From Spirochaetota bacterium (GTDB lineage: Bacteria > Spirochaetota > UBA4802 > UBA5550), in the NCBI GenBank assembly GCA_050298055.1, contig JBNKTL010000004.1:81335-145334 (forward strand): a DNA stretch of 64,000 bases. The letters run 5' to 3'. Position numbers and translations under genes: made by a program. Below, piece by piece: positions 5,162-54,786 of this stretch. Positions within the stretch are counted from its first letter, which is position 1; every line of letters begins with the position of its first letter. A model generated the notes under the pieces. It searched no databases and was not told where the DNA came from. It worked only from the letters and a program-made list of their open reading frames with translations.

Positions 5162-5171
5162 AAAAAGTAAT

Positions 5172-9021: not shown

Positions 9022-9047
9022 ATTTTAAGCAGAGATTTAAAATTATC

Positions 9048-9326
9048 TTAAAAAATACCCGCCTTTTTCAGTTCTTCTTCGGAGAGTTCGGTTATATCAA
9101 TGATGTCTTCCAGGGAGAATCCCTTCTCATGCATCTTTCGGGCATCTTTAAGCCTGCCTTCAAGAATTCCTTCTAATTTCCCTTCAGTTATACCTTCCCG
9201 TTTTCCCTGTTCTGTCAATCTTTGAGCTAATGACGGCATAATTTTACCTCCCGGGATTTCCTTTTCATCTATTATGTCGGCCAGTTTTTCAAAACTGATG
9301 CCCTTTACATGCATTATGTAGGTCAT
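9048..9326 (-). pseudogene. C-terminal fragment of an Rpn/YhgA-like (PD-(D/E)XK transposase_31) protein; internal small ORF 9239-9048
   Basis: MPSLAQRLTEQGKREGITEGKLEGILEG...ARKMHEKGFSLEDIIDITELSEEEL is the Rpn C-terminal signature. No N-terminal nuclease domain upstream. Confidence 0.7.
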
Positions 9327-9510
9327 ATCCTCGCCGGTTTCGGCATGCGGTTTTAATGATGAGTTGAGTTTAACCTGTCAGGCAACATCTTAATAGCCCA
9401 AAAAAAGCAAAATATTTCGAGAATATTCTTGATGACATTACCCTTCTGAGAAAAATGGAATTGCAGATAATAATAAAAAAGAAACAGGATGTTATTAAAA
9501 AGGGTATTCC

Positions 9511-11184
9511 ATGTTTGACTATATTGTAATAGGTTCAGGTTTTGGGGGAAGTGTTTCCGCCATGCGGCTTTCTCAAAAGGGTTATAAGGTCCTTGTCATA
9601 GAAGCGGGAAAAAAATGGGAGGATGATGACTTTGCTGACCGGAACTGGAATTTAAGAAAATACCTGTGGATGCCAAAAATCGGTTTTTACGGAATCCAGC
9701 GAATGAATTTACTCAAGGATGTATTAATACTGGGAGGATCAGGTGTCGGCGGGGGAAGTCTTAATTATGCCAATACATTATATGTCCCGGAAAAAAATTT
9801 TTTTAAAAAAGACAGCATTAAAAGACTGGAAAAGAAAAGGCCGCTTATTCCCTATTATGACCTTGCAAAAAAAATGCTTGGCTGTACGGAAAATCCCTGC
9901 GAGACCGAACCTGACAGAATATTCAGAGAAGTCGCAGAGGAATATGGAAGAGAGGAGAGCTATACTCCAACCTCAGTTGCGGTATATTTCGGAGAAGAGG
10001 GGAAAAACAATCCTGACCCCTATTTCATGGGAGAAGGGCCTGGGCGCACAGGATGTGAGCTATGCGGAGCCTGCATGACCGGCTGCAAAAAGAACGCAAA
10101 GAACACACTTGTAAAAAATTATCTCTACTTTGCGCAGAAATTCGGCACTGAGATAATCCCGGAGCGGAAGGTTATTGATATTGTTCCCCTTTCCGAAGAG
10201 GGAGATGATGGATATGAGGTGACAACTGTCCGCACCACCGGCCTTTTCGGGGCCTTTCATCGGGAAACATTTAAAACCAAAGGAGTGGTTTTTTCAGCCG
10301 GAACCCTTGGTACTCTTTCCCTTTTATTGAAATTAAAACAAACAGGAAGACTTCCAAAGCTGCCTGATACAATCGGCAAAGAGGTCCGTACAAATAGCGA
10401 AGTCATTGCCGCGGCACGGTCCAAGAGAAGAAAAGCAGATTTCTCAAAGGGGGTGGCAATAACATCAAGTGTCTATCCCGATGAAAAAACCCATATTGAA
10501 CCGGCCCGATATGGACGGGGCAATGATATTATGGCATTTTTAAATGTCCTGATGACCGATGGGGGAGGTAAAATTCCCCGGCAGCTGCGTTATCTCGGAA
10601 ACATTATAAAGCACCCTCTGCTTTTCCTCCGGACTCTTAATCCTTTTGGCTATGCTCATCAGGCAATTTTCATCCTTGCCATGCAGACCCATGATAATTA
10701 CATTGACATCCTGCGTAAACGGCGCATCCTCTGGCCCTTCAGCAAATCACTTACCAATGTCCAGGCCACTGAAAAGAAAAATCCTGCATATATCCCCATC
10801 GCAAATGATTTTACCCGAAGAGTCGCCAGACGGATAAATGGATTTGCTGCAAATGCAATAACCGAGGTGTATATGAACGCTCCGATTACAGCCCATATTA
10901 TGGGAGGCTGTTCAATAGGCCGTACATCTGAATCGGGAGTAATTGATGAGCAAAACAGGATAAAGGGTTATCATAACTTTCTGGTCAATGACGGTTCCCA
11001 GATACCTGAAAATCTTGGTGTAAACCCCGCACTTTCAATTACTGCATTCTCTGAGCGTGCAATGTCCTTTATTCCGGTAAAACCGGGAGAAAAAATCAAA
11101 TTATTGAAAGTTGAAAAAAAATGGAAGATCAAGGACATTATAAATCCTCCAAAGAATACCTCAAAGTCAAAACAGAAAGGCTGA
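9511..11184 (+). CDS. GMC oxidoreductase, cholesterol oxidase (ChoD)-like
   Basis: IVIGSGFGGSVSAMRL FAD motif, GSGVGGGSLNYANTLY, CELCGACMTGC, AKNTL, TAHIMGG, NLGVNPALSITAFSER. Confidence 0.9.
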   Translation: MFDYIVIGSGFGGSVSAMRLSQKGYKVLVIEAGKKWEDDDFADRNWNLRKYLWMPKIGFYGIQRMNLLKDVLILGGSGVGGGSLNYANTLYVPEKNFFKKDSIKRLEKKRPLIPYYDLAKKMLGCTENPCETEPDRIFREVAEEYGREESYTPTSVAVYFGEEGKNNPDPYFMGEGPGRTGCELCGACMTGCKKNAKNTLVKNYLYFAQKFGTEIIPERKVIDIVPLSEEGDDGYEVTTVRTTGLFGAFHRETFKTKGVVFSAGTLGTLSLLLKLKQTGRLPKLPDTIGKEVRTNSEVIAAARSKRRKADFSKGVAITSSVYPDEKTHIEPARYGRGNDIMAFLNVLMTDGGGKIPRQLRYLGNIIKHPLLFLRTLNPFGYAHQAIFILAMQTHDNYIDILRKRRILWPFSKSLTNVQATEKKNPAYIPIANDFTRRVARRINGFAANAITEVYMNAPITAHIMGGCSIGRTSESGVIDEQNRIKGYHNFLVNDGSQIPENLGVNPALSITAFSERAMSFIPVKPGEKIKLLKVEKKWKIKDIINPPKNTSKSKQKG

Positions 11185-37309: not shown

Positions 37310-38197
37310 CTATTTGTAATCGTTGATCCTTTCACTCTTCTTCTCATCCAGCTCAATAACCTCCTGGAGGCTCTTGAAGTGAGGAGAATCAACTCCATAG
37401 ATCAGTTCAACAGCCTGGAGCATGCTTCTGTTCTTCTTATTCTTGTAGAGCATGATATCTTCCTCTGTTGCGTGTTTGTACTTTGTGAGTACTGCTTCCA
37501 TATACCCGTAGCAGCTTGCAAGGTATTTGTACGCCCATACGTCCTTCTTGTTTTTCTCAGAGAGAGTCAGGTATCTTTCAAGGATCGGGATGCACGGCTT
37601 GAAGTTATTCAGGTCGTAATTTGTGGATACATACATCTGGTAGAGCCGTGACTGGAAATTTATAAACCTGGCGTCCTTCTTTACTTCAACTGATTTTATG
37701 TCATCAAGATAGTAGATAGACTTGGTGAAGAAGGTTATTGCTTTCATCTTGGCTTCATACTTTTTCCTGGCAATAATTCGCTGTTCCTGGTTTTTCCTGT
37801 CAATCTCCTGCCAGTAGAACCTTTCGTTCAGGTGTTTTTTGCCCTTCTGTGCTGTTTTGATCTTAGATACCTCGTTCTCCATATCCTCCAGGATATCCAG
37901 GCCTGTTGAGTATTCGTCAATTGCCAGCCTTAAAAGGTTTTCAGAATACTCCTTGTTCAACTTCTGGAGTTCCCTGATGGCTTTCACATAGGGATGGAAG
38001 TCTGTAGTCCTCCAGCCGCCGGTATCCGAATCACCGCCCTTTGCCGGTTCTTTCACCGGGGTGGTCTTTTTATCACCGGCTGTTCCCTTCCCGGTACCGG
38101 TACCCTGGGCAGACAGTACTGTCTGAAACAGCAGTGAAAGGATAAAAGCACAGGCCAATCCTGTTGCATGGCTCTTCTTAAATATTGCAGATTTCAT
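37310..38197 (-). CDS. fcpA: Flagellar-coiling protein A homologue
   Basis: Colinear with Leptospira FcpA as recalled: W..xDF..Y, ERFYWQEIDRK, FTKSIYYLDDIK, YDLNNFKPCIPILERY, KYLASCY, ELIYGVDSP. Signal peptide; sigma28-type promoter upstream. Confidence 0.9.
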   Translation of the reverse strand: MKSAIFKKSHATGLACAFILSLLFQTVLSAQGTGTGKGTAGDKKTTPVKEPAKGGDSDTGGWRTTDFHPYVKAIRELQKLNKEYSENLLRLAIDEYSTGLDILEDMENEVSKIKTAQKGKKHLNERFYWQEIDRKNQEQRIIARKKYEAKMKAITFFTKSIYYLDDIKSVEVKKDARFINFQSRLYQMYVSTNYDLNNFKPCIPILERYLTLSEKNKKDVWAYKYLASCYGYMEAVLTKYKHATEEDIMLYKNKKNRSMLQAVELIYGVDSPHFKSLQEVIELDEKKSERINDYK

Positions 38198-39833: not shown

Positions 39834-41102
39834 TCAGGCCTTTACAACGGGGATCTCGTCCCACCGGGTCGTATATCTCTTTGAGAGGAAGGCCCGCCTC
39901 ATCTGCCATTTTTTCGATACTCCCTCCGCTGCAAAAGAAAGACTCTCTCTTCCCATGGACCTGTTGATCCTGTCCAGGGTCCGCATCAGTGAGCGGTTCT
40001 CCTCCATCTTCCCGAAGGGGGTGAAGAGATCAAGCTGTGTCTCGCTTTCGGGTGTGATATCGGAGAGCATCACCCCCACCTTCTTGTAGCGGTAGTTCTC
40101 CCTGTATATTTTTTCCAGAAGACCCCCGGCGCATCCCATGAGGAGAGGGGTGTAGGAGGTGGCAACGGGGATTCCGCACCCGGCGGCGTTGGAGTACTGG
40201 GGATCGCCGGTAAAGGGATTGGTTGTTATGAAAACCGTTATGAATGAGGCGATGCTCTTCTCCAGGCGGAGCTTTTCCGCTCCCCGGGAGGTGTATGAGG
40301 CAAGGGCCTCTCTCAGCTGGCCGAGGTCCCGGACGGGGGTCCCGAATGACCGGGAGCAGACAATCCCCTGCTTGGAGGGAGGCGCTTCTTCCAGGGGGAT
40401 GCAGGGTATTCCCCGGAGCTCATAGACTGTCCGGAGCCCCATTATTGTCATGTTTTTCTTTATCCATTTGTCAGGGGCGTCCCGGAGGTGAAGGGCGGTG
40501 GAGATCCCGTTCCTGTGAAGGAGCTTTGTATACTGCCTGCCCACCCCCCACACATGGGAGACCTCTATGCTGTGGAGGAGGGCGTCTGTCTCCGGATGGG
40601 AAGTGATGTTGAATGTTCCCCGGTGTGAGGGGTTCCTCTTGGCAATCATGTTTGCCAGTTTTGCCAGTGTCTTGGTAGGGCCGATACCCACGGAGACGGG
40701 AATGCCGGTCCATTGTTTTACTGTTTCCCTTATGGTCCTGCCCGTGCGAAGGATGCCCGGGCCGGCATCCTCCAGCAGGAGAAATGCCTCATCTATGGAG
40801 TAGACCTCCATCTCCGGGGTGAAGGTTGCCAGGCACTCCATGACCCGCCTGGACATGTCTCCGTAGAGGGTGTAGTTGGATGAAAAAACGGCTATCCCCT
40901 CCTTTTTAATGAGAGGCTTCAGCCGGAAGTAGGGTTCCCCGAAGGGCATCCCCATTTTCTTCACCTCCTCCGATCGCGCCACAACATTTCCGTCGTTGTT
41001 GGAGAGCACCACCACCGGGGACCTCCAGAGGGAGGGGTCGAAGACCCTTTCGCAGGATATATAAAAATTGTTGCAGTCCACAAGGGCATAAACTCCCTTC
41101 AT
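39834..41102 (-). CDS. umuC: Y-family DNA polymerase V subunit UmuC
   Basis: [44 protein letters not shown]-terminal [16 protein letters not shown]. Confidence 0.96.
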
Positions 41103-41107
41103 TCCTG

Positions 41108-41548
41108 TTACCTCACTGTATGTATGACATGTATCACAACCCCCCACACCTCGAAACCGGATTCGGGGCCTACGGCTATGGGTGCGTAGCGGGGATTTTC
41201 GGCTTTGAGGAACGCCCTGTTGCCCTGGATAATAAGCCGCTTTACGGTGAGTTCGCCGTCCAGGGCCGCTATGACAATGCTGTTGCTCACAGGTGTCTCG
41301 GCCCTGTCCACTATCAGGGTGTCCCCTGAGTATATTCCCGCCCCTGTCATGGAATCACCCGATACCTTTACGAAAAATGTTGCTGAGGGATGCTTTATGA
41401 GCAGCTCATTAAGGTCCAGTCTTCTGTCAATATAGTCATCGGCAGGGGAGGGGAAGCCTGCGGATATCCGTGCGGCAAAGAGGGGAAGTCTTATCCGGGT
41501 GTTGCATTTCACCCTGTAGATAGCTTTTCCGGTAAAGGGGTTGTTCAT
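41108..41548 (-). CDS. umuD: DNA polymerase V autoproteolytic subunit UmuD
   Basis: [12 protein letters not shown] (cleavage site), VSGDSM (catalytic Ser), ELTVKRL (catalytic Lys). Confidence 0.96.
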
Positions 41549-41580
41549 AGGTCTTTTTGTCTCCTGTTGCGGGGAATCCG

Positions 41581-41900
41581 GGGGTCGGAGCCCTGTCTTA
41601 ATAATATCAATATAATAAAGAGCGGGTATATGTCAACAAATGTTTAGTATGTTTTTCAGGAAAAGTCCAGGGGTCAGAGCAAAAATTTTTGGATTAAGAA
41701 AACAAAAAAATGGGGGTCAGAGCAGAATCTAATGTGACATAATCCTGGATAGAAGAGAAAAATTAATCTGTTGTGGGTCCTTAAAAGATAATTGTATGTG
41801 AATTTTACCGATGCTCTGACCCTTTGCTTAGTTTTGAGGCGGTATTTGCCAAGTGCTCTGACCCTGATTCCCGGTTTGAATTTGCCGGTTGCTCTGGTCC
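41581..41900. repeat. Inverted array of short GGGGTCAGAGC / GCTCTGACCC repeats
   Basis: Forward copies at 41581, 41670, 41713; reverse copies at 41813, 41855 and a degenerate one at 41891. Confidence 0.75.
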
Positions 41901-41920
41901 TCCGGTTTCGTATATTTTTT

Positions 41921-42589
41921 TTAATCTACCGGGACTATGCATTCAGGTGAGTTGTTTTTCGGTGAATTGACCAGGTCAGATACAGGGTGATACTTCATTT
42001 CATGAGAAGGGAAGGGTTTCAGAAGGGAAATGACTTCTTCAGCGGGGTGGTTCTCCGTATCCAGCCAGGTGTTAATATCCTGTTCATGGAGGATCACAGG
42101 CATCCTGTTGTGTATCGGCTCAAGGAGCCTGTTGGGGGTTGTGGTAATTATGGTGCATGTTTCCAGGACTTTCTTCTCTCCCGATACCCACTTTTCATGC
42201 AGACCGGCCATTACCATAAGTTTCTTGTCTTCAAGGTATACGTAAACAGGATGTTTCCCCTTTTTCTTTTTTTCCCATTCGAAGAAGCCGCCGGCAACAA
42301 TCAGGCATCTCCTGGCAGAGAGTGCCTTTTTAAAGCCCGGTTTTTCCCCAATGGTTTCAGCCCGTGCATTAATCATCCTGTACCCTGTTTTCGGGTCCTT
42401 TGCCCAGTGAGGGACCAGGCCCCACCTGAAGTCTTTCAGTATCCTTTTCTTATTGCAAAAGACAATTGATGGTATGGAGTTTCCCGGAGCAACATTATAG
42501 CTGGGTTTCGCAGAAGAATATATTTCATCGATGTCATAGTATTCTGCAATGATATTAAGGTATTCGGTATTTGCAAATCTTCCGCACAT
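41921..42589 (-). CDS. SOS response-associated peptidase (SRAP, YedK/HMCES-like)
   Basis: N-terminal MCGRF, YNVAP, WGLVPHW, INARAET, RRCLI, GFFEW, IHNRMPVIL. Confidence 0.95.
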   Translation of the reverse strand: MCGRFANTEYLNIIAEYYDIDEIYSSAKPSYNVAPGNSIPSIVFCNKKRILKDFRWGLVPHWAKDPKTGYRMINARAETIGEKPGFKKALSARRCLIVAGGFFEWEKKKKGKHPVYVYLEDKKLMVMAGLHEKWVSGEKKVLETCTIITTTPNRLLEPIHNRMPVILHEQDINTWLDTENHPAEEVISLLKPFPSHEMKYHPVSDLVNSPKNNSPECIVPVD

Positions 42590-43078: not shown

Positions 43079-43324
43079 ATGAAGAAGTTTTTAACTCTTA
43101 TTGCAGCAGTAGCGATAATGATTTCATTATCATCTGCTGACCTTATGGCTACAAAAAAGATTAAAAAAGCCCATGATGGTAAAAAAGGCAAAGACGGAGC
43201 TAAAATTAGCTGTTCTTACTGCCACAAAAAGGCCAAAGTCCCCAAGCTGAAAAAACCTAAAAAATACACAGGACAAAAAACAAATCCTTATTGTATGAAA
43301 TGTCATGCAAAAATGAAGAAATAA
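43079..43324 (+). CDS. Small basic di-heme cytochrome c
   Basis: GGAGG RBS; signal peptide; CSYCH and CMKCH; lysine-rich; 81 aa. Confidence 0.85.
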   Translation: MKKFLTLIAAVAIMISLSSADLMATKKIKKAHDGKKGKDGAKISCSYCHKKAKVPKLKKPKKYTGQKTNPYCMKCHAKMKK

Positions 43325-43360
43325 CCAGATATAATCTATATCTACTGGTTCATTAAATGA

Positions 43361-43387
43361 GGATGTCTTTAAGACATCCCTTTTTTT
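43361..43387 (+). terminator. Intrinsic terminator
   Basis: GGATGTCTT-T-AAGACATCC inverted repeat followed by CTTTTTTT. Confidence 0.75.
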
Positions 43388-43711
43388 GTCTTCATAAAAG
43401 ACCTGTTTATTGTTGATCTCTACGTGATTTTATCATACAGCTGAGTAGCAACTACACAGGCACAGGTTATAAGTACAACCAGTCATAAAAAAATATTGAC
43501 AAAAAATTAAAAATATGTAGATTGAGCAGAGATGAAAAGATTTGCCTGAAAAATAATTTTTCACTATTTTCATAATTCCAGGTATCAAGTTATACAGGTC
43601 ATACAGATCAGTTTTTGGAACATGATGGCTATCTGTATAAATACATAAAAAGCGATTTAATCCCAACATATTATAGTTTAGTTGCTCTATTAAATAGAGG
43701 GGAGTGCTTTT

Positions 43712-45577
43712 GTGATAAAAATTTTAACCTACATATTCTATAGGAAAAATATTATATGTAAACTGTCTGGTGTTCTGAAACACCCATTGCTTTTGCTATT
43801 GGTTATTCTGTTCATAAACGCCTGCAGCGTCCTGAGAGATCAATTATCCGGGGAAAACAGCTCATGTGCCGCATCAGACTGCCACATTTTTACTGTTCTG
43901 AAAACTTATCCTCCGTTAAGCGGAAAACATGCTCTCCACCTCTCCCGGGATAATATCTTTTGTGACAATTGCCACAGTAACTATAATTCATTCCTCTCCC
44001 ATAAGAACGGGACGGTTGATGGATACAGCACTTCCGTTAATATTGTATCTTTCGATTCAATTAATCCTTCCGCTTCCTGGAATAATTCCACAACAAGCTG
44101 TGAAAACCTCTCCTGTCATACAAATGCCGACTGGTACGGTACGGCATCATTCGGTTGCACCGGCTGTCACTATGGCGGTAGCGGGATAGATCCTGTTTTA
44201 ATCAACGGAAACGGTATAGAGGGGAAACATCAGAAACATGTTTCGGACATGGGGATACCCTGTGAGAAGTGCCATTTTAACTATAAGAGCATGTTGACCC
44301 ATGCCGACGGTTCTCTTGATACCGATAACAGTTCGGTTCTTATGACATACTTTGATACCTCCAATCCTTCCGGTTCCTGGACGGGAGATACCGGAGCTCA
44401 TACCGGAAGCTGCGCTTCTCTGGCGTGTCACGGAACATCAACCCTGGATTGGTACGGCTCTAATACATGGGTCCTCCCGGCATGTGATTCATGCCACGGT
44501 GCACCGGCAGGGAACAGGAGGCAGGTGACCGGAACGGGAGGTGATTTTGCAGGTAACAGCTCCATCCTCTCCCTGCATGTGCGGGGAAGTTCCGATCCCA
44601 CGGATGAGCAGTGTCAGGTGTGTCATGAAATGTCTGCCCACACGGGGGGGACTGTCCGACTGAAAAATGCGGATAACGGAGCGGCAATAGTATACGACTC
44701 TTCCGATATATCCTCTCTTGAACCATTCTGTCTCAGCTGTCACGATTCGGATGGCGCCCTGTCCGGTTACGCATCTGGGGGATCTGCAGATAATCCCTTC
44801 AGTGACGGTAATAATCTCGGGATGCCCCCATATCCTTATTCAAAAAGAATTTCCGTAAGCTGGAATAAAGTTAACGGTCACGGTCCCAACGGAGGTCATG
44901 GGCAGGGAGACAGGCTTACCTGTCTTGGTACCGGGGAACCGGGAACCGGCTGCCATGGCAATAACGGGAGTATAAATGCTCACGGTTCCACCTGGGATGC
45001 AATAAGTACAAAGGAATTCAAATATGATCTTCCGGACAGCTATTCCGAAAGCTATTTTGATCTCTGTTTCAACTGCCATGCAGGCTACCCCGGTGTTACC
45101 AAAGAGGATATATTCGGTGTTAAGCCGGGTGGAGTATTTGACTGGGATTACGGTCCTTCCGGAGGACCTAACGGCAACAACCCGCCCTATTATACCGGTG
45201 CAACGACCACCCATTTTGCCGATATGGGAGATACCGGATCGGGGCTTTTTTATGATGATTCTTTCTGGGGTGATCAGATGAATCTTCACTGGTCCCATAT
45301 AGGTATTCAGGCATCTGACTACAGGGGGACCGGTGTTGATTCCGGCATAACCTGTGTAAACTGCCATGATGTCCATGGTACCTCTACAGTATACGGAATG
45401 GTTTATTCCGAGATAGGGTATAGTAATGGAGCCGGTGCCGGTCCGGATATTTACGGTAAAATGAATGATGGCTTTCCGGGAAATACAAGCGGGTATCCTG
45501 CATATTGTGGTGGTTTTGCATGCCATGATGTATTTACAGGTTCCATGCATGTGTGGTTTTACCCCATGAACGAGTAG
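43712..45577 (+). CDS. Multiheme cytochrome c lipoprotein (~13 heme motifs; CxxxxCH...CxxCH type)
   Basis: Lipobox INAC; hand count of 8 CxxCH, 4 CxxxxCH and 1 Cx9CH. Confidence 0.92.
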   Translation: MIKILTYIFYRKNIICKLSGVLKHPLLLLLVILFINACSVLRDQLSGENSSCAASDCHIFTVLKTYPPLSGKHALHLSRDNIFCDNCHSNYNSFLSHKNGTVDGYSTSVNIVSFDSINPSASWNNSTTSCENLSCHTNADWYGTASFGCTGCHYGGSGIDPVLINGNGIEGKHQKHVSDMGIPCEKCHFNYKSMLTHADGSLDTDNSSVLMTYFDTSNPSGSWTGDTGAHTGSCASLACHGTSTLDWYGSNTWVLPACDSCHGAPAGNRRQVTGTGGDFAGNSSILSLHVRGSSDPTDEQCQVCHEMSAHTGGTVRLKNADNGAAIVYDSSDISSLEPFCLSCHDSDGALSGYASGGSADNPFSDGNNLGMPPYPYSKRISVSWNKVNGHGPNGGHGQGDRLTCLGTGEPGTGCHGNNGSINAHGSTWDAISTKEFKYDLPDSYSESYFDLCFNCHAGYPGVTKEDIFGVKPGGVFDWDYGPSGGPNGNNPPYYTGATTTHFADMGDTGSGLFYDDSFWGDQMNLHWSHIGIQASDYRGTGVDSGITCVNCHDVHGTSTVYGMVYSEIGYSNGAGAGPDIYGKMNDGFPGNTSGYPAYCGGFACHDVFTGSMHVWFYPMNE

Positions 45578-45765
45578 TGCCGGGGTATGAGGTGAAAATT
45601 TATTACCATTAATACTTATTATGAAAAAATATATTGACAAAATTTTAAAAATATGCACGTTATTTTTTTTCAGGGATTTCTCGATTAAAAAAAGATCACA
45701 GCAAAATGGAGAGTTTTATTTTTGCAGATATTGCTCGGTAAATAATTCAACGGGATTAACTTATT

Positions 45766-48700
45766 ATGAATCAATCACATATATTCCTTAAGTTATCATG
45801 GTTACTGGCCACAGGATTCCTGATTTTATTCATTACTGCCTGCAGTGACCTCAAAGACACGGTTTCCCAACAGGGGAATAACTGCGCTGCTTCCGATTGT
45901 CATACCTCAACACTTCTTAAGCAGTATCCCCCCGATTCCGGTCGGCACACAGAACACCTTTCTACAGGGTTAAGCTGTGACAGCTGTCATTTTAACTATA
46001 ATGAAAATGCCCTCCACAAGAACGGAGTAAAGGATACGGATACCGGGGAGGTGATTGTTTTCTTTAATCTAAAGAACACAGCTGTTTCCTGGAACCAGCG
46101 GATAACAACATGTGAAAATAATTCCTGTCATAAAGATGCTGACTGGTACGGATCGGCCGTTTTCGGATGTACCGACTGCCATTCTGTTCCTGAAAGCGGA
46201 TCGCACAAAAAGCATTCCGGAGATCTTTCCTATGAATGCACGGAGTGTCATAACGGGTACCGGTATGATCCTTCGCATACAAACGGGACCCTTGATAACC
46301 CGGACAGTTCGCCGGGCATGATGAGTTTCGGTACCCTTAATCCATCCGGATCTTACGATAACAGTACCGATACCTGTTCAAACCTTCAGTGTCACGGATC
46401 AGGCACACCCCGCTGGGGGAGCAGTTCCGAATGCGGAAGCTGCCACGGGAATCCCCCTCTCACCGGGGCTCATTCAAAGCATGTGACCGATTCCGGTTTA
46501 GCATGTAATGAATGCCACCTTGAAAGGGGAAGCGGTACCTCGTATCATGCAGATGGAAATCCTGACGTTAATGTCACAACGGCAGTCAATCCTTCGGGCA
46601 ACTATACTCCGGGAGTCCTCCCGGGCACGGGTACCTGCGACAGCCTCTACTGCCACGGATCGGATACACCTGCATGGGACGGAACGGTCTCCTGCGGAAG
46701 CTGTCATGGGACTCCTCCCGCTACCGGTGCGCATTTGCGGCATGTGAATGATATGGGGTACAGCTGCAGCAAATGTCATAACGGGAATGTCCACGGAAGT
46801 ATGGCGGTAGAAGTGGGTTTCGATGCCACTAATCCCTCGGGGAACTATGTTCCGGGAAGCAGCCCCGGTACAGGCACCTGCAACAGCCTCTCCTGTCACG
46901 GGTCCGGTTCGCCTGCGTGGGACGGTACCATAACATGTGATGGCTGCCACGGGAACCCGCCCCTCACCGGGGCTCATTCAAAGCATGTGACCGATTCCGG
47001 TTTAGCATGTAATGAATGCCACCTGGAAAGGGGAAGCGGTACCTCGTATCATGCAGATGGAAACCCTGACGTTAATGTCACTACGGCAGTCAATCCTTCA
47101 GGCAACTATACTCCGGGAGTCCTGCCGGGTACGGGTACCTGCGACAGCCTCTACTGTCACGGATCGGATACACCTGCATGGGACGGAACGGTCTCCTGCG
47201 GAAGCTGTCATGGGACTCCTCCCGCTACCGGTGCGCATCTGCGGCATGTGAATGATCTGGGGTACAGCTGCAGCAAATGTCATAACGGGAGTGTCCATGG
47301 AAGTATGGCGGTAGAAGTGGATTTCGATGCCACTAATCCCTCGGGGAACTATGTTCCGGGCAGCAGCCCCGGTACAGGCACCTGCAACAGCCTCTACTGT
47401 CACGGGTCCGGCTCTCCTGCGTGGGACGGTACCATTACATGTGATGGCTGCCACGGGAACCCGCCCCTCACCGGGTCTCATTCAAAGCATGTGACTGAAT
47501 CCGGGTATGAATGCAGCCAGTGCCATTTCAGCAGGGGGAGCGGTACTTCATATCATGTAAATGGAAATCCCGATATTAATTTCAATTCTTCGCACAGCCC
47601 CAGCGGTCACTATTCGGAGGGAGCCTGTTCGAATATCTACTGTCACGGGAATTTTACGGGAGGTAATAACGGGACCATACAGCCGGTATGGGGGGAAACG
47701 GTAAGTTGTTCAACTAACAGCTGTCATGGGGGAAATGCCAGTGGAAACCCCGCATGTTCGTCTGTACCTGACTCAAAACACGGGACCCATATATCGGCTA
47801 TCATGAACATGAACAATCCGTCAACCGGTTTAGTCTATACCGAGGAAGAATCCTGTTCCGTTTGTCACAGCGGCCATGGTTACGGAACATCAAGCCATAT
47901 AAATATGAAAGTTGATGCGGCATTTGACTATACACCGCCGGAAGGCCTTGCGGGGACCATTCTCTCCGGGGGGGATTATGACACCATTTCGGGAAAATTC
48001 CAGAATATTGCCTGCAGCAGCACATATTGCCACGGGAACTTTGCAGGTGGGAATGCCGTTACGGTCAACTGGGGCGAATCGGTTTCCGACCCGGGATGGT
48101 GCGGGAGCTGCCATACGACATCTCCGGTGAGCGTAAAACATTCGGAACACCTTGCCCTTTACCCGGGGGAGTGCGGGTACTGTCATCAGGGGTATACTTC
48201 TTCATCTGCTCCGGCCGGTCATGTGTCGCTGGTGAAAGATGTTAAATTTAACTATCCTCATTCACTGTCAATATCATCGTCATATGACAACGCTACAAAA
48301 ACCTGCTCGGGTGTCTACTGTCACGGGAATTTTCCCCCGGTAACCTATACGAACAGGTATGATGTGACAGCTGTAATAAATCCCGGTAACAGTGACAACC
48401 CGGTCTGGCAGGATTCTTCAACGGCCCCCTGTGGTTCATGTCACGGGAATCCGGATAACAATTATTCATCGTTAACTCACGGCGGGCATACAGATGCAAT
48501 AAGATCTTATGCAAAATCCATATTTTTCGGGAACCCCCTGAGTATTGAAAGCTGTGATGCCTGTCATAACTATGGGGACGACACCGAAAGATCTTTTGAT
48601 ACTACCAGTACCCAGGGAAGTTACAATACCGTAAATCATGCTGATTTTTCCATTAACGATTCGGGAGTCAATGATGATGTTAACTTTAAGGCGGATGACT

Positions 48701-48978
48701 CAGACCTTGCTTCCCGTATAGGAAGTCTTGTGGCCTCAAAAACCAGCTGGGACCCTGCCACCACCACATGTTCAAATTCCTGGTGTCACGGGAACTTTTC
48801 CAATGGTGTTGACATCACCGGTTATAACGGGACGCCAGACTGGCTTAACGGGACAACCGGAACCTGCGGTACGGAGGCATGTCACAGTTCAGATATCCAT
48901 GGCAATTACGGATGCGGCGGTCATTGTCACGGTTCCAGCCCCAATGCGGAGCATGTGAACGGAACAATCGGTTTTTAA
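45766..48978 (+). CDS. Large multiheme cytochrome c lipoprotein (~32 heme motifs)
   Basis: Lipobox ITAC; hand count of 18 CxxCH, 13 CxxxxCH and 1 CxxxCH, in repeating three-heme modules of the Geobacter CxxxxCH...CxxCH class. Confidence 0.93.
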   Translation: MNQSHIFLKLSWLLATGFLILFITACSDLKDTVSQQGNNCAASDCHTSTLLKQYPPDSGRHTEHLSTGLSCDSCHFNYNENALHKNGVKDTDTGEVIVFFNLKNTAVSWNQRITTCENNSCHKDADWYGSAVFGCTDCHSVPESGSHKKHSGDLSYECTECHNGYRYDPSHTNGTLDNPDSSPGMMSFGTLNPSGSYDNSTDTCSNLQCHGSGTPRWGSSSECGSCHGNPPLTGAHSKHVTDSGLACNECHLERGSGTSYHADGNPDVNVTTAVNPSGNYTPGVLPGTGTCDSLYCHGSDTPAWDGTVSCGSCHGTPPATGAHLRHVNDMGYSCSKCHNGNVHGSMAVEVGFDATNPSGNYVPGSSPGTGTCNSLSCHGSGSPAWDGTITCDGCHGNPPLTGAHSKHVTDSGLACNECHLERGSGTSYHADGNPDVNVTTAVNPSGNYTPGVLPGTGTCDSLYCHGSDTPAWDGTVSCGSCHGTPPATGAHLRHVNDLGYSCSKCHNGSVHGSMAVEVDFDATNPSGNYVPGSSPGTGTCNSLYCHGSGSPAWDGTITCDGCHGNPPLTGSHSKHVTESGYECSQCHFSRGSGTSYHVNGNPDINFNSSHSPSGHYSEGACSNIYCHGNFTGGNNGTIQPVWGETVSCSTNSCHGGNASGNPACSSVPDSKHGTHISAIMNMNNPSTGLVYTEEESCSVCHSGHGYGTSSHINMKVDAAFDYTPPEGLAGTILSGGDYDTISGKFQNIACSSTYCHGNFAGGNAVTVNWGESVSDPGWCGSCHTTSPVSVKHSEHLALYPGECGYCHQGYTSSSAPAGHVSLVKDVKFNYPHSLSISSSYDNATKTCSGVYCHGNFPPVTYTNRYDVTAVINPGNSDNPVWQDSSTAPCGSCHGNPDNNYSSLTHGGHTDAIRSYAKSIFFGNPLSIESCDACHNYGDDTERSFDTTSTQGSYNTVNHADFSINDSGVNDDVNFKADDSDLASRIGSLVASKTSWDPATTTCSNSWCHGNFSNGVDITGYNGTPDWLNGTTGTCGTEACHSSDIHGNYGCGGHCHGSSPNAEHVNGTIGF
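46439..47580 (+). repeat. 504-bp (168-codon) intragenic tandem repeat: two near-identical copies plus a partial third
   Basis: GCTGCCACGGGAA...CTCACCGGG...CATTCAAAGCATGTGAC starts at 46439, 46943 and 47447. Confidence 0.92.
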
Positions 48979-49328
48979 CAGGCAGCGATGAGTCCTTTTA
49001 TTTACTTCAGACTGAGAGGGGCTTTTTTGGTGGTTGGGTATCAACTCTGAATATCCGAATCACTCAATTGTCATTGGCAGAGATTAACAACTGCCGGGGG
49101 TTGATTTTCAGATTAACAGTTTCTTCTAAATTAGTAAAATACTAAACAAAAAATAATTTATGATTATAAAAAATGCTTGCAAAAAGAGAAGACGGGAAAT
49201 CTTCTTGAAGTAATTACATATTTAAAACTGTTCCAGCCAAAAGATTGAGAAAAATACACAGATCATTTGGAAGAGCTGCAAATTAATAAACATTCAATTT
49301 TACTAAAAGTATTCGGGTGTTACTCGTT

Positions 49329-50642
49329 ATGAATAGAATATACTGTATAAAAATATCTGTTCTTATAATAATTTCTGCATTATATTATTATCCGGCATTT
49401 GCAAAAACGGATATTGACGGAATGTTTGACCTTTCCACCTCTATCTATAGTACAATAAACGAAGATCGATCAGACACCGACACTAACTACAGGCCGTATG
49501 GCAGCCTGCTCCTTAACATTGCATTTAATGATAAGTTCAGTTTTCACACTAATGACAGGATTGTTTACAGAGGACTTGAGACAGAGAAGGATGCCAATGA
49601 GGACCCGGAAAATCTTGATCTGAATGCTTATTACGGATATATTAATTACAGGGTAAACAATAAGGTCAATATCCAGCTGGGCCGGATCATGGATGTTGCC
49701 AATCTTGTTTACTCATACTATGACGGTTTAAATCTCAGGTTTAAAACCGATTTGGGAAACGGGAGTTTTTGGACAAACGTCTACGGAGGGCTTCTGGTCA
49801 ATGATGACTATCTGGATGATGAAGAGACTCTTTATGGATATAACAGCTTCGATGTAAGAAATTTCTCCATTGAACAGAGAACCGGAGACTATATTTGCGG
49901 CGCGCAGGTTAATTATTTTCTTAAAAGAAGGTTCATTGTCTCACTGGATTACCAGATGACGATGAATGATAATTCCCTTGCGGAGCAGTATGTCTCCCTG
50001 GATTTTGATACATTTTTTTCTCAAAGGATTAAACTTTATGGATTCGGAACATTAGATACAATTGAAAAGAAACCTTCGGCATCACTTGCCGGGATCAGGG
50101 TGAATCCTTTGAAGCTCATTTCACTATCCGTTGAACATGAATACTACAGGCCGGTATTTATTAAGGACTCCTACTGGTGGCTTTACTTTGAATCTCTGGC
50201 ACACCAATCATACAATGGAATTCTTTACTTTTTTTTCTCTCCGATCGTTACATTGACAACAAAGTATTCAAGACTGATATATGAGGGCGACAGCGAGACG
50301 GGCAATGATATTTCTGCGACTCTTGAAGACAGAAAAATTCTCGGTTTCAGCATTTCTTTAACAGGTGAATTCCTTAAGGGGCCTGAAGGTGAAAAGAGAA
50401 CCGGTATGGGTGCCATTGAACGACGATTTTTTAACTTCATAGATATAAGAGCCGGAGGCGGAATGGTACAGTATACGGAGGATCCTGAATCCGGCGATCT
50501 GTCATCGGGTTATCTTGTGCGGGGTGATCTTGGAATCAATTTCGACAACCGTCTGATAATATCGGCTGATGCCGAATATTTTAACAACCCGAAGTACCTG
50601 TATGATACAAGATTTTTTATATCCGTAAAATATCTCTTTTAA
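49329..50642 (+). CDS. Outer-membrane beta-barrel (porin-like partner of the multiheme cytochromes)
   Basis: Signal peptide ending in PAFA; amphipathic beta strands throughout; QLGR; C-terminal FFISVKYLF; lies between cytochrome genes. Confidence 0.8.
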   Translation: MNRIYCIKISVLIIISALYYYPAFAKTDIDGMFDLSTSIYSTINEDRSDTDTNYRPYGSLLLNIAFNDKFSFHTNDRIVYRGLETEKDANEDPENLDLNAYYGYINYRVNNKVNIQLGRIMDVANLVYSYYDGLNLRFKTDLGNGSFWTNVYGGLLVNDDYLDDEETLYGYNSFDVRNFSIEQRTGDYICGAQVNYFLKRRFIVSLDYQMTMNDNSLAEQYVSLDFDTFFSQRIKLYGFGTLDTIEKKPSASLAGIRVNPLKLISLSVEHEYYRPVFIKDSYWWLYFESLAHQSYNGILYFFFSPIVTLTTKYSRLIYEGDSETGNDISATLEDRKILGFSISLTGEFLKGPEGEKRTGMGAIERRFFNFIDIRAGGGMVQYTEDPESGDLSSGYLVRGDLGINFDNRLIISADAEYFNNPKYLYDTRFFISVKYLF

Positions 50643-50656
50643 CCGGGGTAATTGCC

Positions 50657-51901
50657 ATGAAAAAATATAACTATATGAAATTTATTCTTTTTCTTGCACT
50701 GGCAGCCGCGGCATCTGTCCTCTATTCCGGGGAAAAGAAACTTTTTCCTCACATGACCCATGGGGAAAACGATGTTGAGTGTAATACATGCCATCCCGGT
50801 GCGAAAACGAGTACACAGTCAAAAGAGAACCTCTATCCGGAAAAAACAGTCTGCGCAGGGGAATGTCACGAGAAGGATATTCTGAACAAAGTTGATTTTA
50901 CCGGTTCAAAGCCGAAATGGAAGCTCATTTTTAATCATAAAGTACATGTTGAACAGGATATTAAGTGTGTTACCTGCCACGCAGGTATTAATAAAAAAGA
51001 TTTCCAGGCTGGAGATGCGTTCCCGTCTATGAAGGTATGTTTTAAATGTCATAACGGTGATGACGCGGAGAAGACCTGCACCCTCTGTCATGAAGAGAAG
51101 GTCCCTTTCCCCCATAAGCTCCACATTCTGGACAATAAACTTGCATGCGATGAATGTCATAAGAACATCAAAAAAAGTACAACCACCAGGGGGGGCAGGG
51201 ATATCCCCCCGAAGAATGTCTGCAATGACTGCCACGAGGCTGAGTTGAAGTTCTCTGATGTTACAGACTTTCCTTACAGGCAGACCTATGAATTTAACCA
51301 CAAGCTCCATGTCGTCGGCCAGGAACTGGGATGCAGGGAGTGCCACAAGGCATTATATGAGAAGGAGCATCCCCGGCAGGCAGAGCTTGTCCCGAAGATG
51401 AAATACTGCTTTGAATGTCATGACAACGATACGGCAACAAAGTACTGTATGCTCTGCCATCTTAATCCCACAAAACCCAGAGACCACTATTACGACTGGG
51501 ACAACATGCATAAGAAGAGCGCAAACAGGGATATGCAGAATTGTATCTCCTGTCACCGGAGCAGGCAGTTCTGCATATCATGTCATAAAGGGATCAAGAA
51601 ACCGGGGAAAACACACAGCCCTAATTTTGAGCTTACACACAGGTTTGAGGCAAGGACAACCCTTAAGAATTGTTATTCATGCCACAGCAGAAGGCAGTGC
51701 GCTTCCTGTCACATCTCATACGGTGTGAGTTCCGGCAGTAAAACAAAGATCAAAAATATTCATGGTCCCCTTGGAATATGGATAAGCAGCAGGCATAAAA
51801 GAGCAGGGAGGCTCCGGATATCCACCTGTAAGGTCTGTCACGTGAAAGCCGATTGTTACGGATGCCATAATCCGGCTTATATCGGACCAAGAAGAAGATG
51901 A
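50657..51901 (+). CDS. Periplasmic multiheme cytochrome c (~16 heme motifs; c3/c7-like modules)
   Basis: Signal peptide; 15 CxxCH plus 1 CxxxCH; repeated FPHxxH/FNHKxH distal-ligand motifs. Confidence 0.92.
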   Translation: MKKYNYMKFILFLALAAAASVLYSGEKKLFPHMTHGENDVECNTCHPGAKTSTQSKENLYPEKTVCAGECHEKDILNKVDFTGSKPKWKLIFNHKVHVEQDIKCVTCHAGINKKDFQAGDAFPSMKVCFKCHNGDDAEKTCTLCHEEKVPFPHKLHILDNKLACDECHKNIKKSTTTRGGRDIPPKNVCNDCHEAELKFSDVTDFPYRQTYEFNHKLHVVGQELGCRECHKALYEKEHPRQAELVPKMKYCFECHDNDTATKYCMLCHLNPTKPRDHYYDWDNMHKKSANRDMQNCISCHRSRQFCISCHKGIKKPGKTHSPNFELTHRFEARTTLKNCYSCHSRRQCASCHISYGVSSGSKTKIKNIHGPLGIWISSRHKRAGRLRISTCKVCHVKADCYGCHNPAYIGPRRR

Positions 51902-52075
51902 TTTTTTTATTCTTATAAAAATCGGAAATTGCCATGTTTTGTTGTATCTTAACTTAAGATAAAAGGGTATACATTTTTTTAAGCTTCAAGTTTCATTGAC
52001 TGATTTTTTAAGTCACAGGGTTTTATGGGGGATTGAATGGTTTCCCCGCTATAAAAAAATAATAGGAGGCGGTAA

Positions 52076-52777
52076 ATGAGAAATTTGAAAGGAAATAAAA
52101 TCAGAGTTTTTGCTGTTTTTTCTGTTTTTGGAGCGACACTCTTTTTATCCGGAACTATTTATGCTGTGGTCCAACTTGCAGTTGTACCTCAGAAAATCGG
52201 TCTTAAGGATGTTGAGTTCAAACAGCTCAACAGGAAGAATTGTGAAGAGTGTCATGGCGAGTCACTTGCCGATAAGCACCACAAGACGAAAAATGCCGTA
52301 TCGGGGAACTGTATTTCCTGTCATGATGTCAAGACGGGAAAAACCACACAGGTTATCCTGAAAACCAATTGCGGAGATTGTCATACAAAAAGTCCTCATC
52401 ATTCAACCCAGGAAGCGCTTAACAAGGAGTGCACAGGCTGCCATGAGAGTCCGGGTGTCAGTGATTTCAGCATGAGTATTCCGAAGTACAATCCTACAAT
52501 GATAACGCCCACTAAGGATACATGCAAAAAGTGTCACAGAGACGGAGTTGTCAACGGGGAAAAAGTTTTCGGAATTAAGGCAACGCATCATGGGATATCT
52601 TACAAGGATTGTAATGTCTGTCACGGGGACAACAAAGCAAGCCAGGACATCCGGATATGTGAAAGATGTCACAGTGTAAAAGCAATTCATGAAGTAAAAG
52701 CGCATGTTGAGAAAACAGCCTGTATACACTGTCATGATACGAAAGAGGGCATAAAATACGGGAATATGAAGAAATAA
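52076..52777 (+). CDS. Octaheme cytochrome c
   Basis: AGGAGG RBS; signal peptide; 8 CxxCH with HH distal-ligand pairs. Confidence 0.92.
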   Translation: MRNLKGNKIRVFAVFSVFGATLFLSGTIYAVVQLAVVPQKIGLKDVEFKQLNRKNCEECHGESLADKHHKTKNAVSGNCISCHDVKTGKTTQVILKTNCGDCHTKSPHHSTQEALNKECTGCHESPGVSDFSMSIPKYNPTMITPTKDTCKKCHRDGVVNGEKVFGIKATHHGISYKDCNVCHGDNKASQDIRICERCHSVKAIHEVKAHVEKTACIHCHDTKEGIKYGNMKK

Positions 52778-52801
52778 TTTTTGCAGACAGGTAAAGAGTA
52801 A

Positions 52802-52836
52802 AAAAAAACCGCTGAATTTTTTTCAGCGGTTTTTTT
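52802..52836 (+). terminator. Intrinsic terminator (intron insertion target)
   Basis: AAAAAAACCGCTGAA...TTCAGCGGTTTTTTT hairpin, 4 nt before the intron 5' end. Confidence 0.85.
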
Positions 52837-52840
52837 ATTG

Positions 52841-54786
52841 GTGCGCCCGGCATGGGCGCACGCTTGGTGGTGCGGTGTAGAGCCATTAACGGCCTTTCTG
52901 GTAATACACCTAGTCCACTACGGGGGTTGATAGTACCAACCGTTAGCTTAAGGCAAGGGTGTCCACCGTGAGGTGGAATCTGAAGGAAGCCGACGGCAAA
53001 ATCCCGGCCTGACGAACAGGAATCACATAAGAGGCCGGTCAGAGTGGGTAAGTTTGCCAAACAAAACAAAGCCCATACTATCAAAGGTCTGACAGGTAAA
53101 TGTGGCAGGTATATGGGAGGAAAGCGTGCGTTCTTACCCGGGGAGGTCTGGCAACAGGTGAAACTGATGAACTTCAGGATCGCAACCCATATAGCAATAT
53201 ATGGCTGAGCTGTCAGAAGTCAGCAGAGGTCATAGTACTGTGGAAGGATAAGAGAAGCAGGAAGGACTGAACATTAAGAGGATATTGAAATCCGAATTTT
53301 GAGTATCATGCGGTGACAGCAGCCAACTCATTAAATGAGCCTTTGAGGGGACGTGAGGGTGAAGCCCTGAGAGAAACCGCAGAGAGCCGAGTATGATACC
53401 AGCGAAGAAAGATGGAAATATCAAATGGACAAAAGATGAGTAATACACTATTTGATAGAATCTTATCAAGAGAGAACATGATGCTGGCACTGGGTCGGGT
53501 GCGTCGGAATCGTGGCAGTCATGGTGTTGATGGAATGACGGTGGATGAACTTCCAGCCTATCTTGTGACAGCATGGCCATTCATCAGAGGTGAATTACTC
53601 TCCGGTACATATACACCTCAACCGGTCAGAAGGGTAGAAATACCCAAACCTGACGGTGGGATCAGACTTTTAGGAATACCAACAGTGCTGGATCGTCTGA
53701 TACAGCAGGCTACAGTGCAGGTTCTTAGCCCTGTTTTTGAAGAAACATTCTCAGAGTACAGTTATGGTTTCAGGCCCGGGAAAAGTGCTCATACCGCCAT
53801 CTTAAAGGCAAAAGAGCATATAGAACAGGGCTATACCTGGACAATAGACATGGATCTGGAGAAATTTTTCGACAGGGTGAACCATGACATCCTGATGTCC
53901 CGAATAGCACGAAAGATAAAGGATAAGAGAGTCCTGAAGCTTATCAGGAACTATCTGGTATCTGGAGTGTTGGTGGAAGGGATTAAAGTATCTTCTGAGG
54001 AAGGGACCCCCCAGGGAGGTCCCCTCTCCCCGCTTCTTGCCAATATTCTTCTTGATGACCTTGATAAGGAACTTGAGAAGAGAGGCCACGTCTTTGTTCG
54101 ATATGCTGACGATTGTAATATTTACGTCAAAAGTGAAAGAGCAGGATTAAGGGTTATGGCAAGTGTAAGAAAACTGCTGACAGGAAAGTTGAAATTAAAG
54201 GTCAATGAATCAAAAAGTGGAGTTGATCGACCTTGGAAACGGAAATTTCTGGGCTTCAGCTTTTACAAGATCAATGGTAAAGTCGGTATAAGAATTCATC
54301 CAAAATCTATCAGGAAATTTAAGGAAACCATTCGTAAAATAACCAACCGGAACCACAGCCGTAATTTTGAGGAAAGACTTCAAAATCTTGCGGTTGTTAC
54401 ACGTGGCTGGATAAACTACTTTGGAATTGCAGAAGCCAAAAGAGTCATGGAAGAGATTGATATGTGGACAAGGAGAAGACTTAGAGCCTGTCTTTGGAAA
54501 CAATGGAAGCGTATTAAGACAAAACATGATAATCTTGTAAAACTGGGAGTCAACAAAGCCAAAGCATGGGAATGGGCCAATAGCCGAAAGGGTTATTGGA
54601 GAATTGCCGGTAGTTATATTCTATCGACAACTTTGACTAATAAATTTTTTGAAGAAAAGGGATATAAGAGTCTGTTAAAACAGTACAGGAAAGTACATTG
54701 TGCTTAATGAACCGCCGTATACCGAACGGTACGTACGGTGGTGTGAGAGGACGGTGAGTGAAATAATCACTCACCTCCTACTCGAT
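52841..54786 (+). mobile_element. Group II intron, class IIC
   Basis: 5' GTGCGCCCGGCATGGG; 3' domain V/VI GAACCGCCGTATACCGAACGGTACGTACGGTGGTGTGAGAGG...CTCCTACTCGAT; inserted just after a terminator hairpin. Confidence 0.93.
53412..54707 (+). CDS. ltrA: Group II intron reverse transcriptase/maturase (no endonuclease domain)
   Basis: GVDG, RRVEIPKPDGG.RLLGIP, SYGFRPGKS, DLEKFFD, GTPQGGPLSPLL, RYADD, maturase RGWINYF. Confidence 0.95.
   Translation: MEISNGQKMSNTLFDRILSRENMMLALGRVRRNRGSHGVDGMTVDELPAYLVTAWPFIRGELLSGTYTPQPVRRVEIPKPDGGIRLLGIPTVLDRLIQQATVQVLSPVFEETFSEYSYGFRPGKSAHTAILKAKEHIEQGYTWTIDMDLEKFFDRVNHDILMSRIARKIKDKRVLKLIRNYLVSGVLVEGIKVSSEEGTPQGGPLSPLLANILLDDLDKELEKRGHVFVRYADDCNIYVKSERAGLRVMASVRKLLTGKLKLKVNESKSGVDRPWKRKFLGFSFYKINGKVGIRIHPKSIRKFKETIRKITNRNHSRNFEERLQNLAVVTRGWINYFGIAEAKRVMEEIDMWTRRRLRACLWKQWKRIKTKHDNLVKLGVNKAKAWEWANSRKGYWRIAGSYILSTTLTNKFFEEKGYKSLLKQYRKVHCA

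Follow-up and report, generated by a model that had tools for sequence, protein, structure and literature searches.

We analysed a 64,000-nucleotide (nt) stretch of a Spirochaetota contig (JBNKTL010000004.1), hereafter the window, in which six open reading frames (ORFs; g1 to g6), all on the + strand, fill positions 43079-52777. They encode a small diheme cytochrome, two lipoprotein cytochromes, an outer-membrane beta-barrel, a 16-heme periplasmic cytochrome and an octaheme cytochrome, and the original prediction of six co-oriented genes with about 71 hemes was confirmed by a count of 71 motifs on the + strand across this span (2+13+32+0+16+8 from g1 to g6). That the locus holds a real and conserved porin-cytochrome conduit is well supported.

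The 71 motifs comprise 51 CxxCH, 17 Cx4CH, 2 Cx3CH and 1 Cx10CH (20 atypical), and both Cx4CH and Cx3CH are known to bind heme (PMC11492766). Counts of 12, 32, 16 and 8 motifs compare with maxima of 3-5 in 1000 shuffles per protein; these shuffles, together with conservation, rule out chance or artefact. Non-motif His number 18 for 13 motifs in g2, 38 for 32 in g3, 15 for 16 in g5 and 9 for 8 in g6, with g1 as the exception, and this ratio of about one distal His per motif is what bis-His wires would be expected to show. Signal peptides and lipoboxes were assigned by eye throughout.

The barrel and its adjacent modular cytochrome

g4 (49329-50642, +; 437 amino acids (aa) from ATG, or 441 from the GTG at 49317) ends in a C-terminal Phe and is acidic (isoelectric point (pI) 4.65). 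An AF2 model built on a 15-row alignment shows 22 strands and no plug domain (predicted local distance difference test (pLDDT) 81). Its fold matches are generic 18-24-strand barrels, with ~360 residues aligning to 22-strand receptor barrels (Z 17-19, root-mean-square deviation (rmsd) 4.7-5.4), in agreement with the predicted outer-membrane barrel. No Pfam family was found for g4, and NCBIfam barrel matches were weak. A profile search of the PDB returned no relative, and the fold search gave only generic barrels, with no MtrB among the matches listed, which does not exclude an MtrB likeness. The barrel family is small: 15-20 proteins were found by search, corresponding counts being 16 loci in GTDB, 14 of 401 genomes of the phylum and 13 of 48 genomes of the family, and all 16 GTDB loci carry spirochaete labels. 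A distant barrel, P0030, aligns to g4 over 361 columns (hhalign 95.8%), and the Atlas neighbours of g4 are unnamed clusters that are commonest in Myxococcota and Zixibacteria (0.98).

g5 (50657-51901, +; 414 aa) encodes a leader (assigned by eye; a helix at residues 2-23 in the model), two tandem ActA-like pentaheme modules (aa 30-150 and 151-273; 50744-51475, +) and a C-terminal six-heme domain with three close CxxCH pairs and 29 K+R vs 7 D+E (51476-51898, +). Its homologue is the very next gene after the barrel in 16 of 16 GTDB loci, and carries 11 motifs in eight loci (one of them frameshift-split), 16 in four and 21 in four. Alignment explains this series: the six-heme domain is invariant, and in front of it stand one, two or three pentaheme modules of ~122 aa each. 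The 21-heme form occurs in two separate starred clades of the barrel tree (26 rows, midpoint root, no clade test); module number has therefore changed more than once. The best match of the pentaheme module is ActA of alternative complex III (sequence E 9e-6; against 6f0k_A, Z 5.4 and rmsd 3.7 over 112 aligned residues at 28% identity), which is modest in strength but stands alone. No NCBIfam family covers the six-heme domain, and a Foldseek search with g5 gave nothing at E ≤0.001.

A barrel unable to house a cytochrome had been named beforehand as a way in which the proposal might fail. Complex prediction for barrel residues 26-437 with g5 residues 147-414 speaks for such housing, scoring 0.69 (runs 0.76, 0.37 and 0.69) vs 0.00 for the best of three control complexes; the mark for such scores, which 116 of 157 solved pairs and 2 of 215 mismatched ones attain, applies only roughly here because our own alignments were used. 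The runs share at least 48% of contacts, with a partner pLDDT of at least 62, and the confident g5 contacts are confined to residues 278-413 and touch 21 of the 22 barrel strands. Charges pair as well, the six-heme domain being basic and the barrel acidic, and strand hydrophobicity was uninformative (0.42 for contact vs 0.50 for non-contact residues). These models support threading of the six-heme domain through the g4 lumen. Independent support comes from the distant barrel P0030: in both of its loci the next gene encodes a 207-aa, 7-motif cytochrome matching the six-heme domain (E about 1e-19), a zero-module form. On nearly all readings considered below, the modelled pair of barrel and g5 would form a transmembrane redox unit.

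Other barrels and cytochromes of this kind were noted in the same searches. The P0030 loci (L061:2315-7696 and L062:4176-9576) lie on metagenome contigs of 73% GC, where an FeS-type protein and a large oxidoreductase-like gene come after the 7-motif cytochrome, possibly a conduit feeding an enzyme. P0025-P0028 form a separate barrel subfamily of 573-605 aa with large insertions, weakly related to g4 (E 1e-8 to 1e-11). In the host genome (G000), a second cluster on contig C5 (L014:5825-10015; C5:71824-76014) encodes a 500-aa barrel, a 13-heme cytochrome and a six-motif lipoprotein; it is weakly related to g4 and g5 and sits between a ccm/hem cluster and Wood-Ljungdahl genes, and a homologue of its lipoprotein adjoins a g4-type barrel in L024. 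On contig C24 of the same genome, a 408-aa barrel-like gene overlaps a tetraheme cytochrome gene (L016:4424-6138; C24:58423-60137). In genome G014, a 665-aa lipoprotein with no heme motifs or NCBIfam family lies between tip cytochrome and barrel (L012:2203-4200), and a second barrel cluster adjoins ccmABC-like genes. In two relatives, decay or assembly error may account for a barrel interrupted by a stop (L020:888-2210) and for the frameshift-split 11-heme cytochrome (L028:11324-12200).

Lipoprotein cytochromes with a shared N-terminal head

g2 (43712-45577, +; 621 aa, start uncertain) and g3 (45766-48978, +; 1070 aa) are acidic lipoprotein cytochromes with 13 motifs (8 CxxCH, 4 Cx4CH, 1 Cx10CH) and 32 motifs (18 CxxCH, 13 Cx4CH, 1 Cx3CH), respectively. 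Both begin with a conserved N-terminal head, followed in g2 by TIGR01904 modules and a distinct C-terminal domain, and in g3 by a chain of ~84-aa triheme TIGR01904 modules; against the curated cut-off of 27, g2 scores 31.9 bits and g3 235.7 bits (10 stretches). Within g3 lies a recent internal tandem duplication (46439-47584, +) with a period of 504 nt, equal to two triheme modules, and 96% identity, which Tandem Repeats Finder missed, the period being above its limit. No meaningful PDB sequence match was found for g2, g3 or the L031 lipoprotein, and the comparison of the g2 C-terminal domain with the L031 protein was not significant.

Of the 16 barrel loci, 14 include a Cx4CH cytochrome; of the other two, L018 belongs to a genome with 52 TIGR01904 matches at other sites, and L029 lies at the edge of its contig. 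Among the 48 family genomes, TIGR01904 exceeds its cut-off in eight of the 13 barrel carriers and in none of the 35 others, these being kin genomes and not independent. The same head follows the lipid Cys in 24 of 25 lipoprotein cytochromes that we picked from our own loci, the exception being cut by a contig start, and the head-bearing proteins range from 139 to 2803 aa with up to ~79 motifs. From these sequences we infer that the shared head is the docking part and the rest an exchangeable extension. A pattern of exchangeable lipoproteins has been described for Ext clusters (Jimenez Otero 2018, PMC6148476).

Two further lipoprotein pairs were observed. On contig C10 of genome G009 (L063:8723-17134), a 2803-aa lipoprotein cytochrome with 78-79 motifs stands beside a 30-heme paralogue, both with the shared head; the larger is, to our knowledge, among the largest single-chain cytochromes. 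On contig C12 of the host genome (L015:5107-10895; C12:67106-72894), two head-bearing lipoprotein cytochromes of 14 and 33 motifs lie between recA and leuA, both over the TIGR01904 cut-off and with no barrel nearby, and are candidate alternative tips.

The small cytochromes g1 and g6

g6 (52076-52777, +; 233 aa) was described in the original prediction as an octaheme cytochrome. Its eight motifs bear this out, but homology to OmcZ, like the modular g5 series, had been missed. g6 matches PDB entries 8D9M (E 2.2e-16) and 7LQ5 (E 6.3e-16), with 8.6e-26 in a profile search; the search output calls these entries only 'Cytochrome c', and we take them to be Geobacter OmcZ, in agreement with a literature listing. 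Seven motifs and seven distal His are in register with these structures, with one further motif and His downstream on either side of the comparison. None of the 36 family members departs from the eight CxxCH and eight His, and the tail after motif 8 is 13 aa in g6 and 2-38 aa across the 36, in a search that admitted only proteins of 128-408 aa. With so short a tail and the C-terminal half missing, g6 is a short form of OmcZ. The C-terminal half of OmcZ is cut off by a neighbouring subtilase to allow polymerisation; no subtilase gene adjoins g6, whose neighbours are g5 and an intron. In all three family genomes that have g6, it directly follows g5, and these belong to the clade with the largest tip expansions; its named homologues are in Spirochaetota and Aminicenantes. 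Pfam, NCBIfam and Atlas features missed the OmcZ likeness, Atlas giving generic c7/c3 clusters only. g6 may act either as a secreted wire or as a carrier within the periplasm.

g1 (43079-43324, +) encodes a small basic diheme cytochrome (81 aa, pI 10.2, 2 CxxCH) with a Sec-type leader and no lipobox, and is a candidate periplasmic shuttle. A homologue occupies the same position in genome G024 (37% over 62 aa), and in G033 an unrelated-looking tetraheme cytochrome stands in its place.

Host genome and transcription signals

The host genome, whose class is probably UBA4802, is 98.3% complete. The presence of FcpA, from which a spirochaete host had been predicted, is supported by a homologue at 37310-38197 (E 1.7e-58, 198 bits, below the 400-bit equivalog cut-off), and the related loci are labelled spirochaete. 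A chimeric contig, also named beforehand as a possible failure of the proposal, was rejected: composition is no strong outlier, the tetranucleotide distance of the locus being exceeded by 7.9% of 433 genome windows, and gene order recurs in relatives, the cluster preceding panB-purH-folE in G000, G019 and G009. One contig of sequencing run X1, which may be the assembly source, spans 47700-52830 without differences, and run X2, from the same study, covers most of it. Because this comparison covered 47700-52830, with 43079-47700 outside it, the 504-nt duplication in g3 rests on the assembly and its 96% identity.

Supporting functions are encoded elsewhere in this genome. Cytochrome c maturation, on which the conduit proposal depended, is represented by CcmA/B/C/E/F-like genes, which lie with hem genes on C5 (partly by eye). 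MenB scores over its cut-off and UbiA-family genes are present; futalosine route genes were not found in the host genome. A candidate quinol-oxidising partner is a cluster on contig C22 that combines a pentaheme cytochrome with HmcB-like and HmcC-like genes, both Hmc matches falling below equivalog cut-offs; no NapC/NirT was detected. This cluster is one of four NrfD-family complexes; the three others have formate dehydrogenase, hydrogenase and Psr/Phs-like neighbours (by eye). The genome also encodes a secretin within a gsp-like operon, a Wood-Ljungdahl cluster and ten crotonase-family matches, and dsrA had no match in it.

The gaps from g1 to g6 measure 388, 188, 350, 14 and 174 nt. A terminator-like hairpin follows g1 (43361-43379, +; a consensus match, although the total hairpin count equals shuffle expectation), and a 31-nt promoter-like element with TTGACA lies upstream of g2 (43487-43517, +), with a second copy upstream of g3 (45625-45655, +). 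The copies are 90% identical and are the only two in the genome (26-nt core, ≤4 mismatches). Because of the gaps, the hairpin and the element, the six genes probably form several transcription units and no single operon; only g4 and g5 look coupled. No riboswitch was found in the intergenic gaps. The cluster ends in a bidirectional terminator-like hairpin (52802-52836).

A group II intron (52840-54786; reverse transcriptase/maturase 53412-54707) is inserted 4 nt behind this hairpin, and class C group II introns habitually insert behind terminator hairpins. Contig C45 carries a copy of 99.8% identity and C59 a fragment, which indicates recent movement. The cluster is immediately preceded (39834-42589) by a umuC/umuD-like pair (by eye) and a SRAP gene (41921-42589), a cassette that is frequent cargo of mobile elements. 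Elsewhere in the window, a low-GC island (2222-5795; GC 0.27-0.29) after serS contains an adenine methyltransferase-like gene and is a possible restriction-modification insertion, and 7807-11184, in a host that appears to be anaerobic, encodes an MbnH/MauG-like di-heme enzyme together with a GMC flavoprotein resembling cholesterol oxidase (622 bits, below its cut-off of 850).

Comparison with known conduits

The architectural criteria of Geobacter conduits (a barrel, an adjacent periplasmic multiheme cytochrome and redox-cofactor lipoproteins) all describe this locus, and it is plausible that it works like Geobacter Pcc/Ext and belongs to Pcc. Like OmbB-OmaB-OmcB, ExtABCD and ExtEFG, it combines a periplasmic multiheme cytochrome, a barrel in the 18-22-strand range and lipoprotein cytochromes with atypical motifs, in a conserved core with exchangeable outer lipoproteins; this likeness is one of architecture. 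The Pcc design as described by Shi 2014 (PMC4245776) comprises 18-22-strand barrels, atypical outer motifs and 5-14 periplasmic hemes, and periplasmic cytochromes of up to 15 hemes are given in PMC6148476. In contrast, g5 has 16 hemes, and 11, 16 or 21 in relatives, built from ActA-like modules and hence outside Shi's descriptive 5-14; TIGR01904 chains that reach ~79 hemes behind a single common head make up the tips, and an OmcZ-like gene lies in the cluster. Heme-number variation among homologues has already been noted (PMC7399161). Relatives of g5 labelled Bacteroidota, with 14 hemes and ~404 aa, match IALB_1838 in size and heme count as given in PMC4245776, which does not establish identity.

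Shewanella MtrCAB, MtoAB and PioAB share the principle of a barrel-threaded cytochrome capped by a surface cytochrome, but g4 has 22 strands vs 28 predicted for the Mtr barrel (PMC4245776). The components had been predicted to be unlike the MtrA/MtrC decahemes, and this holds: g4 has no match to the MtrB/PioB family in NCBIfam (E to 0.1) or Pfam (E to 0.01), and g5, with its 16 motifs, scores 30.9 bits against the decaheme MtrA/DmsE family TIGR03508 (cut-off 192.2). Together with the strand number, these results rule out membership of Mtr. A genome-wide TIGR03509 search was blank, as was its control. The further suggestion of a distinct conduit is only partly right, because the barrel and threading domain have distant relatives in other phyla and fit the Pcc range.

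Other systems share single features. PCC3 (He 2017, PMC5566968) also has heme-rich, repeat-built, Gly/Ser/Thr-rich extracellular cytochromes, and its periplasmic ones have ~21 hemes; unlike our locus, PCC3 clusters include an inner-membrane protein with five helices, and their porins are often far larger (PMC5566968); no five-helix inner-membrane ORF of this type lies between SRAP and the intron. The Geobacter CxxxxCH...CxxCH giants (TIGR01904/PF09698) resemble g2, g3 and the two C12 paralogues, all four of which pass the TIGR01904 cut-off, but here the proteins are lipoproteins with a conserved head beside a barrel. g6 differs from OmcZ in length (233 vs 473 aa), in a CxxCH at heme 2 vs the long-loop motif of OmcZ, in shorter loops and in being basic. 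Unlike ActA, the pentaheme module is repeated in tandem, fused to a threading domain and unaccompanied by other Act genes. ORFs for the beta-propeller and peptidyl-prolyl isomerase that form the core of the SEEP-SRB1 16/26-heme operon (PMC5539420) do not occur in the cluster.

No report of a spirochaete conduit or spirochaete OmcZ homologue was found in the literature within reach, which excluded most subscription papers and part of the supplements. The string 'spiroch' is absent from the main texts of PMC11475568, PMC7399161, PMC4245776 (and its 6 supplements), PMC5566968, PMC5539420, PMC13013709, PMC12133095 and a peat preprint (10.64898/2026.05.27.727921), and the phylum is missing from the published conduit lists that we examined. 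Multiheme cytochrome expression has been described in fatty-acid-degrading Spirochaetota (Nobu 2020, PMC7382037), and UBA4802 are candidate syntrophs of butyrate and long-chain fatty acids according to PMC13248872, whose main text does not contain the word 'cytochrome'.

Proposed function and alternatives

We think it probable that the locus encodes a porin-cytochrome conduit carrying respiratory electrons outward through the outer sheath of the spirochaete, a proposal for which we infer localisation, tip docking, direction of flow and acceptor. Oxidation of fatty acids, acetate, formate or H2 would feed menaquinone, and menaquinol would pass electrons to the HmcBC-like complex and its pentaheme partner on the other contig, the putative inner-membrane link. 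Small carriers (g1 and possibly g6) would then reduce the ActA-like modules of g5, from which electrons would enter its six-heme domain inside the barrel, as modelled. At the outer mouth one of several interchangeable lipoprotein tips (g2, g3 or either C12 paralogue), presumably docked by the shared head, would take them over and lead them along 13-33 further hemes. For longer distances, g6 may be exported and assemble into an OmcZ-type wire. Candidate extracellular acceptors are Fe(III) or Mn(IV) oxides, humics, conductive particles or a partner cell. A bolder version, which we regard as speculative and rather doubtful, is that a motile spirochaete lineage runs a complete build-to-length wire (a barrel-threading hexaheme with 1-3 ActA-derived units, interchangeable surface tips that dock by the one head and reach ~79 hemes, and an exported, protease-independent g6 nanowire) for direct electron exchange with minerals or methanogens during fatty-acid or acetate oxidation.

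Several observations weigh against the outward conduit. The stand-alone model of g5 is weak in the threading domain (pLDDT <50) and too poor for a fold search, one of the three complex runs scored just 0.37, and a solved MtrAB-type complex could favour a pass of the complex score by general likeness. No barrel match was found in 35 of the 48 family genomes; g1 and g6 are not core, g6 occurring in 3 of the 48. Heme loading of the 20 atypical motifs among 71 is an assumption. A CymA-like NapC/NirT protein was not found in the host genome, and the presumed inner-membrane partner is unlinked to the locus. Full-length acetyl-CoA synthase and periplasmic hydrogenase and formate dehydrogenase clusters fit inward flow equally. 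A single RNA run (X4, word share 0.06) gave nothing over 47700-52830, from which no conclusion on expression follows.

The same hardware might instead run the other way, with a partner cell, Fe(0), Fe(II) minerals or a cathode as electron donor, and feed either menaquinone-linked respiration by tetrathionate or polysulfide reductases or the Wood-Ljungdahl pathway. Full-length acetyl-CoA synthase occurs in 10 of 13 barrel carriers vs 11 of 35 other family genomes (kin, and not independent), and the second conduit of the host genome adjoins the Wood-Ljungdahl cluster; that pathway can also run oxidatively, however, and menaquinone and bis-His multiheme potentials are too positive for CO2 reduction without reverse transport. 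Porin-cytochrome systems are able to run inward (PMC6148476, PMC8258643), and uptake by 16/26-heme proteins has been proposed for the partners of anaerobic methanotrophic archaea (Skennerton 2017, PMC5539420), whereas OmcZ and the Geobacter CxxxxCH giants come from outward-respiring organisms (PMC11492766). We consider inward flow unlikely.

Less likely again is that the barrel-cytochrome pair reduces non-permeant sulfur species or another soluble acceptor at the sheath, or that the lipoproteins face the periplasm as a redox network. Pcc clusters are known in S0 and selenite respirers (PMC4245776), clusters for Psr/Phs-like and octaheme reductases that include sulfur-transport genes occur in the host (by eye), and the gene order downstream of the distant barrel in L061 and L062 points the same way. 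Against this, the tips of 30-79 hemes lack a recognisable catalytic domain and gain repeats rapidly, and g3 has ample distal His (38 for 32 hemes), all of which is wire-like; because the cytochrome fills the modelled lumen, no solute channel would be left. It is improbable that the six genes are not one machine at all, with barrel and g5 as a conduit, g2 and g3 as heme capacitors or matrix parts, and g1 and g6 as unrelated periplasmic carriers that gathered at the locus, g6 without polymerising. Separate promoter- and terminator-like signals, paralogous lipoproteins far from any barrel in G000, G009 and G019, and a basic g6 that lacks the OmcZ C-terminal half and has close homologues in Aminicenantes would fit such a picture, but the lipoprotein family and the barrel co-occur across genomes and are adjacent in 14 of 16 loci, and g6 keeps its place behind g5 wherever the family has it.

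What is new here is the threading model, the series of 0-3 modules, the conserved tip head and the family-wide counts. The 11/16/21-heme series allows a direct test of the reach that a periplasmic wire needs, and the exchangeable tips allow one of what determines which surface cytochrome pairs with a barrel. g6, as a short OmcZ homologue, is a natural test of polymerisation without the C-terminal half, which bears on nanowire engineering. If the outward conduit is true, Spirochaetota would join the phyla with trans-outer-membrane electron conduits, and the locus would offer concrete candidate molecules for the interspecies transfer by cytochromes that has been proposed for uncultured spirochaetes degrading fatty acids (PMC7382037).

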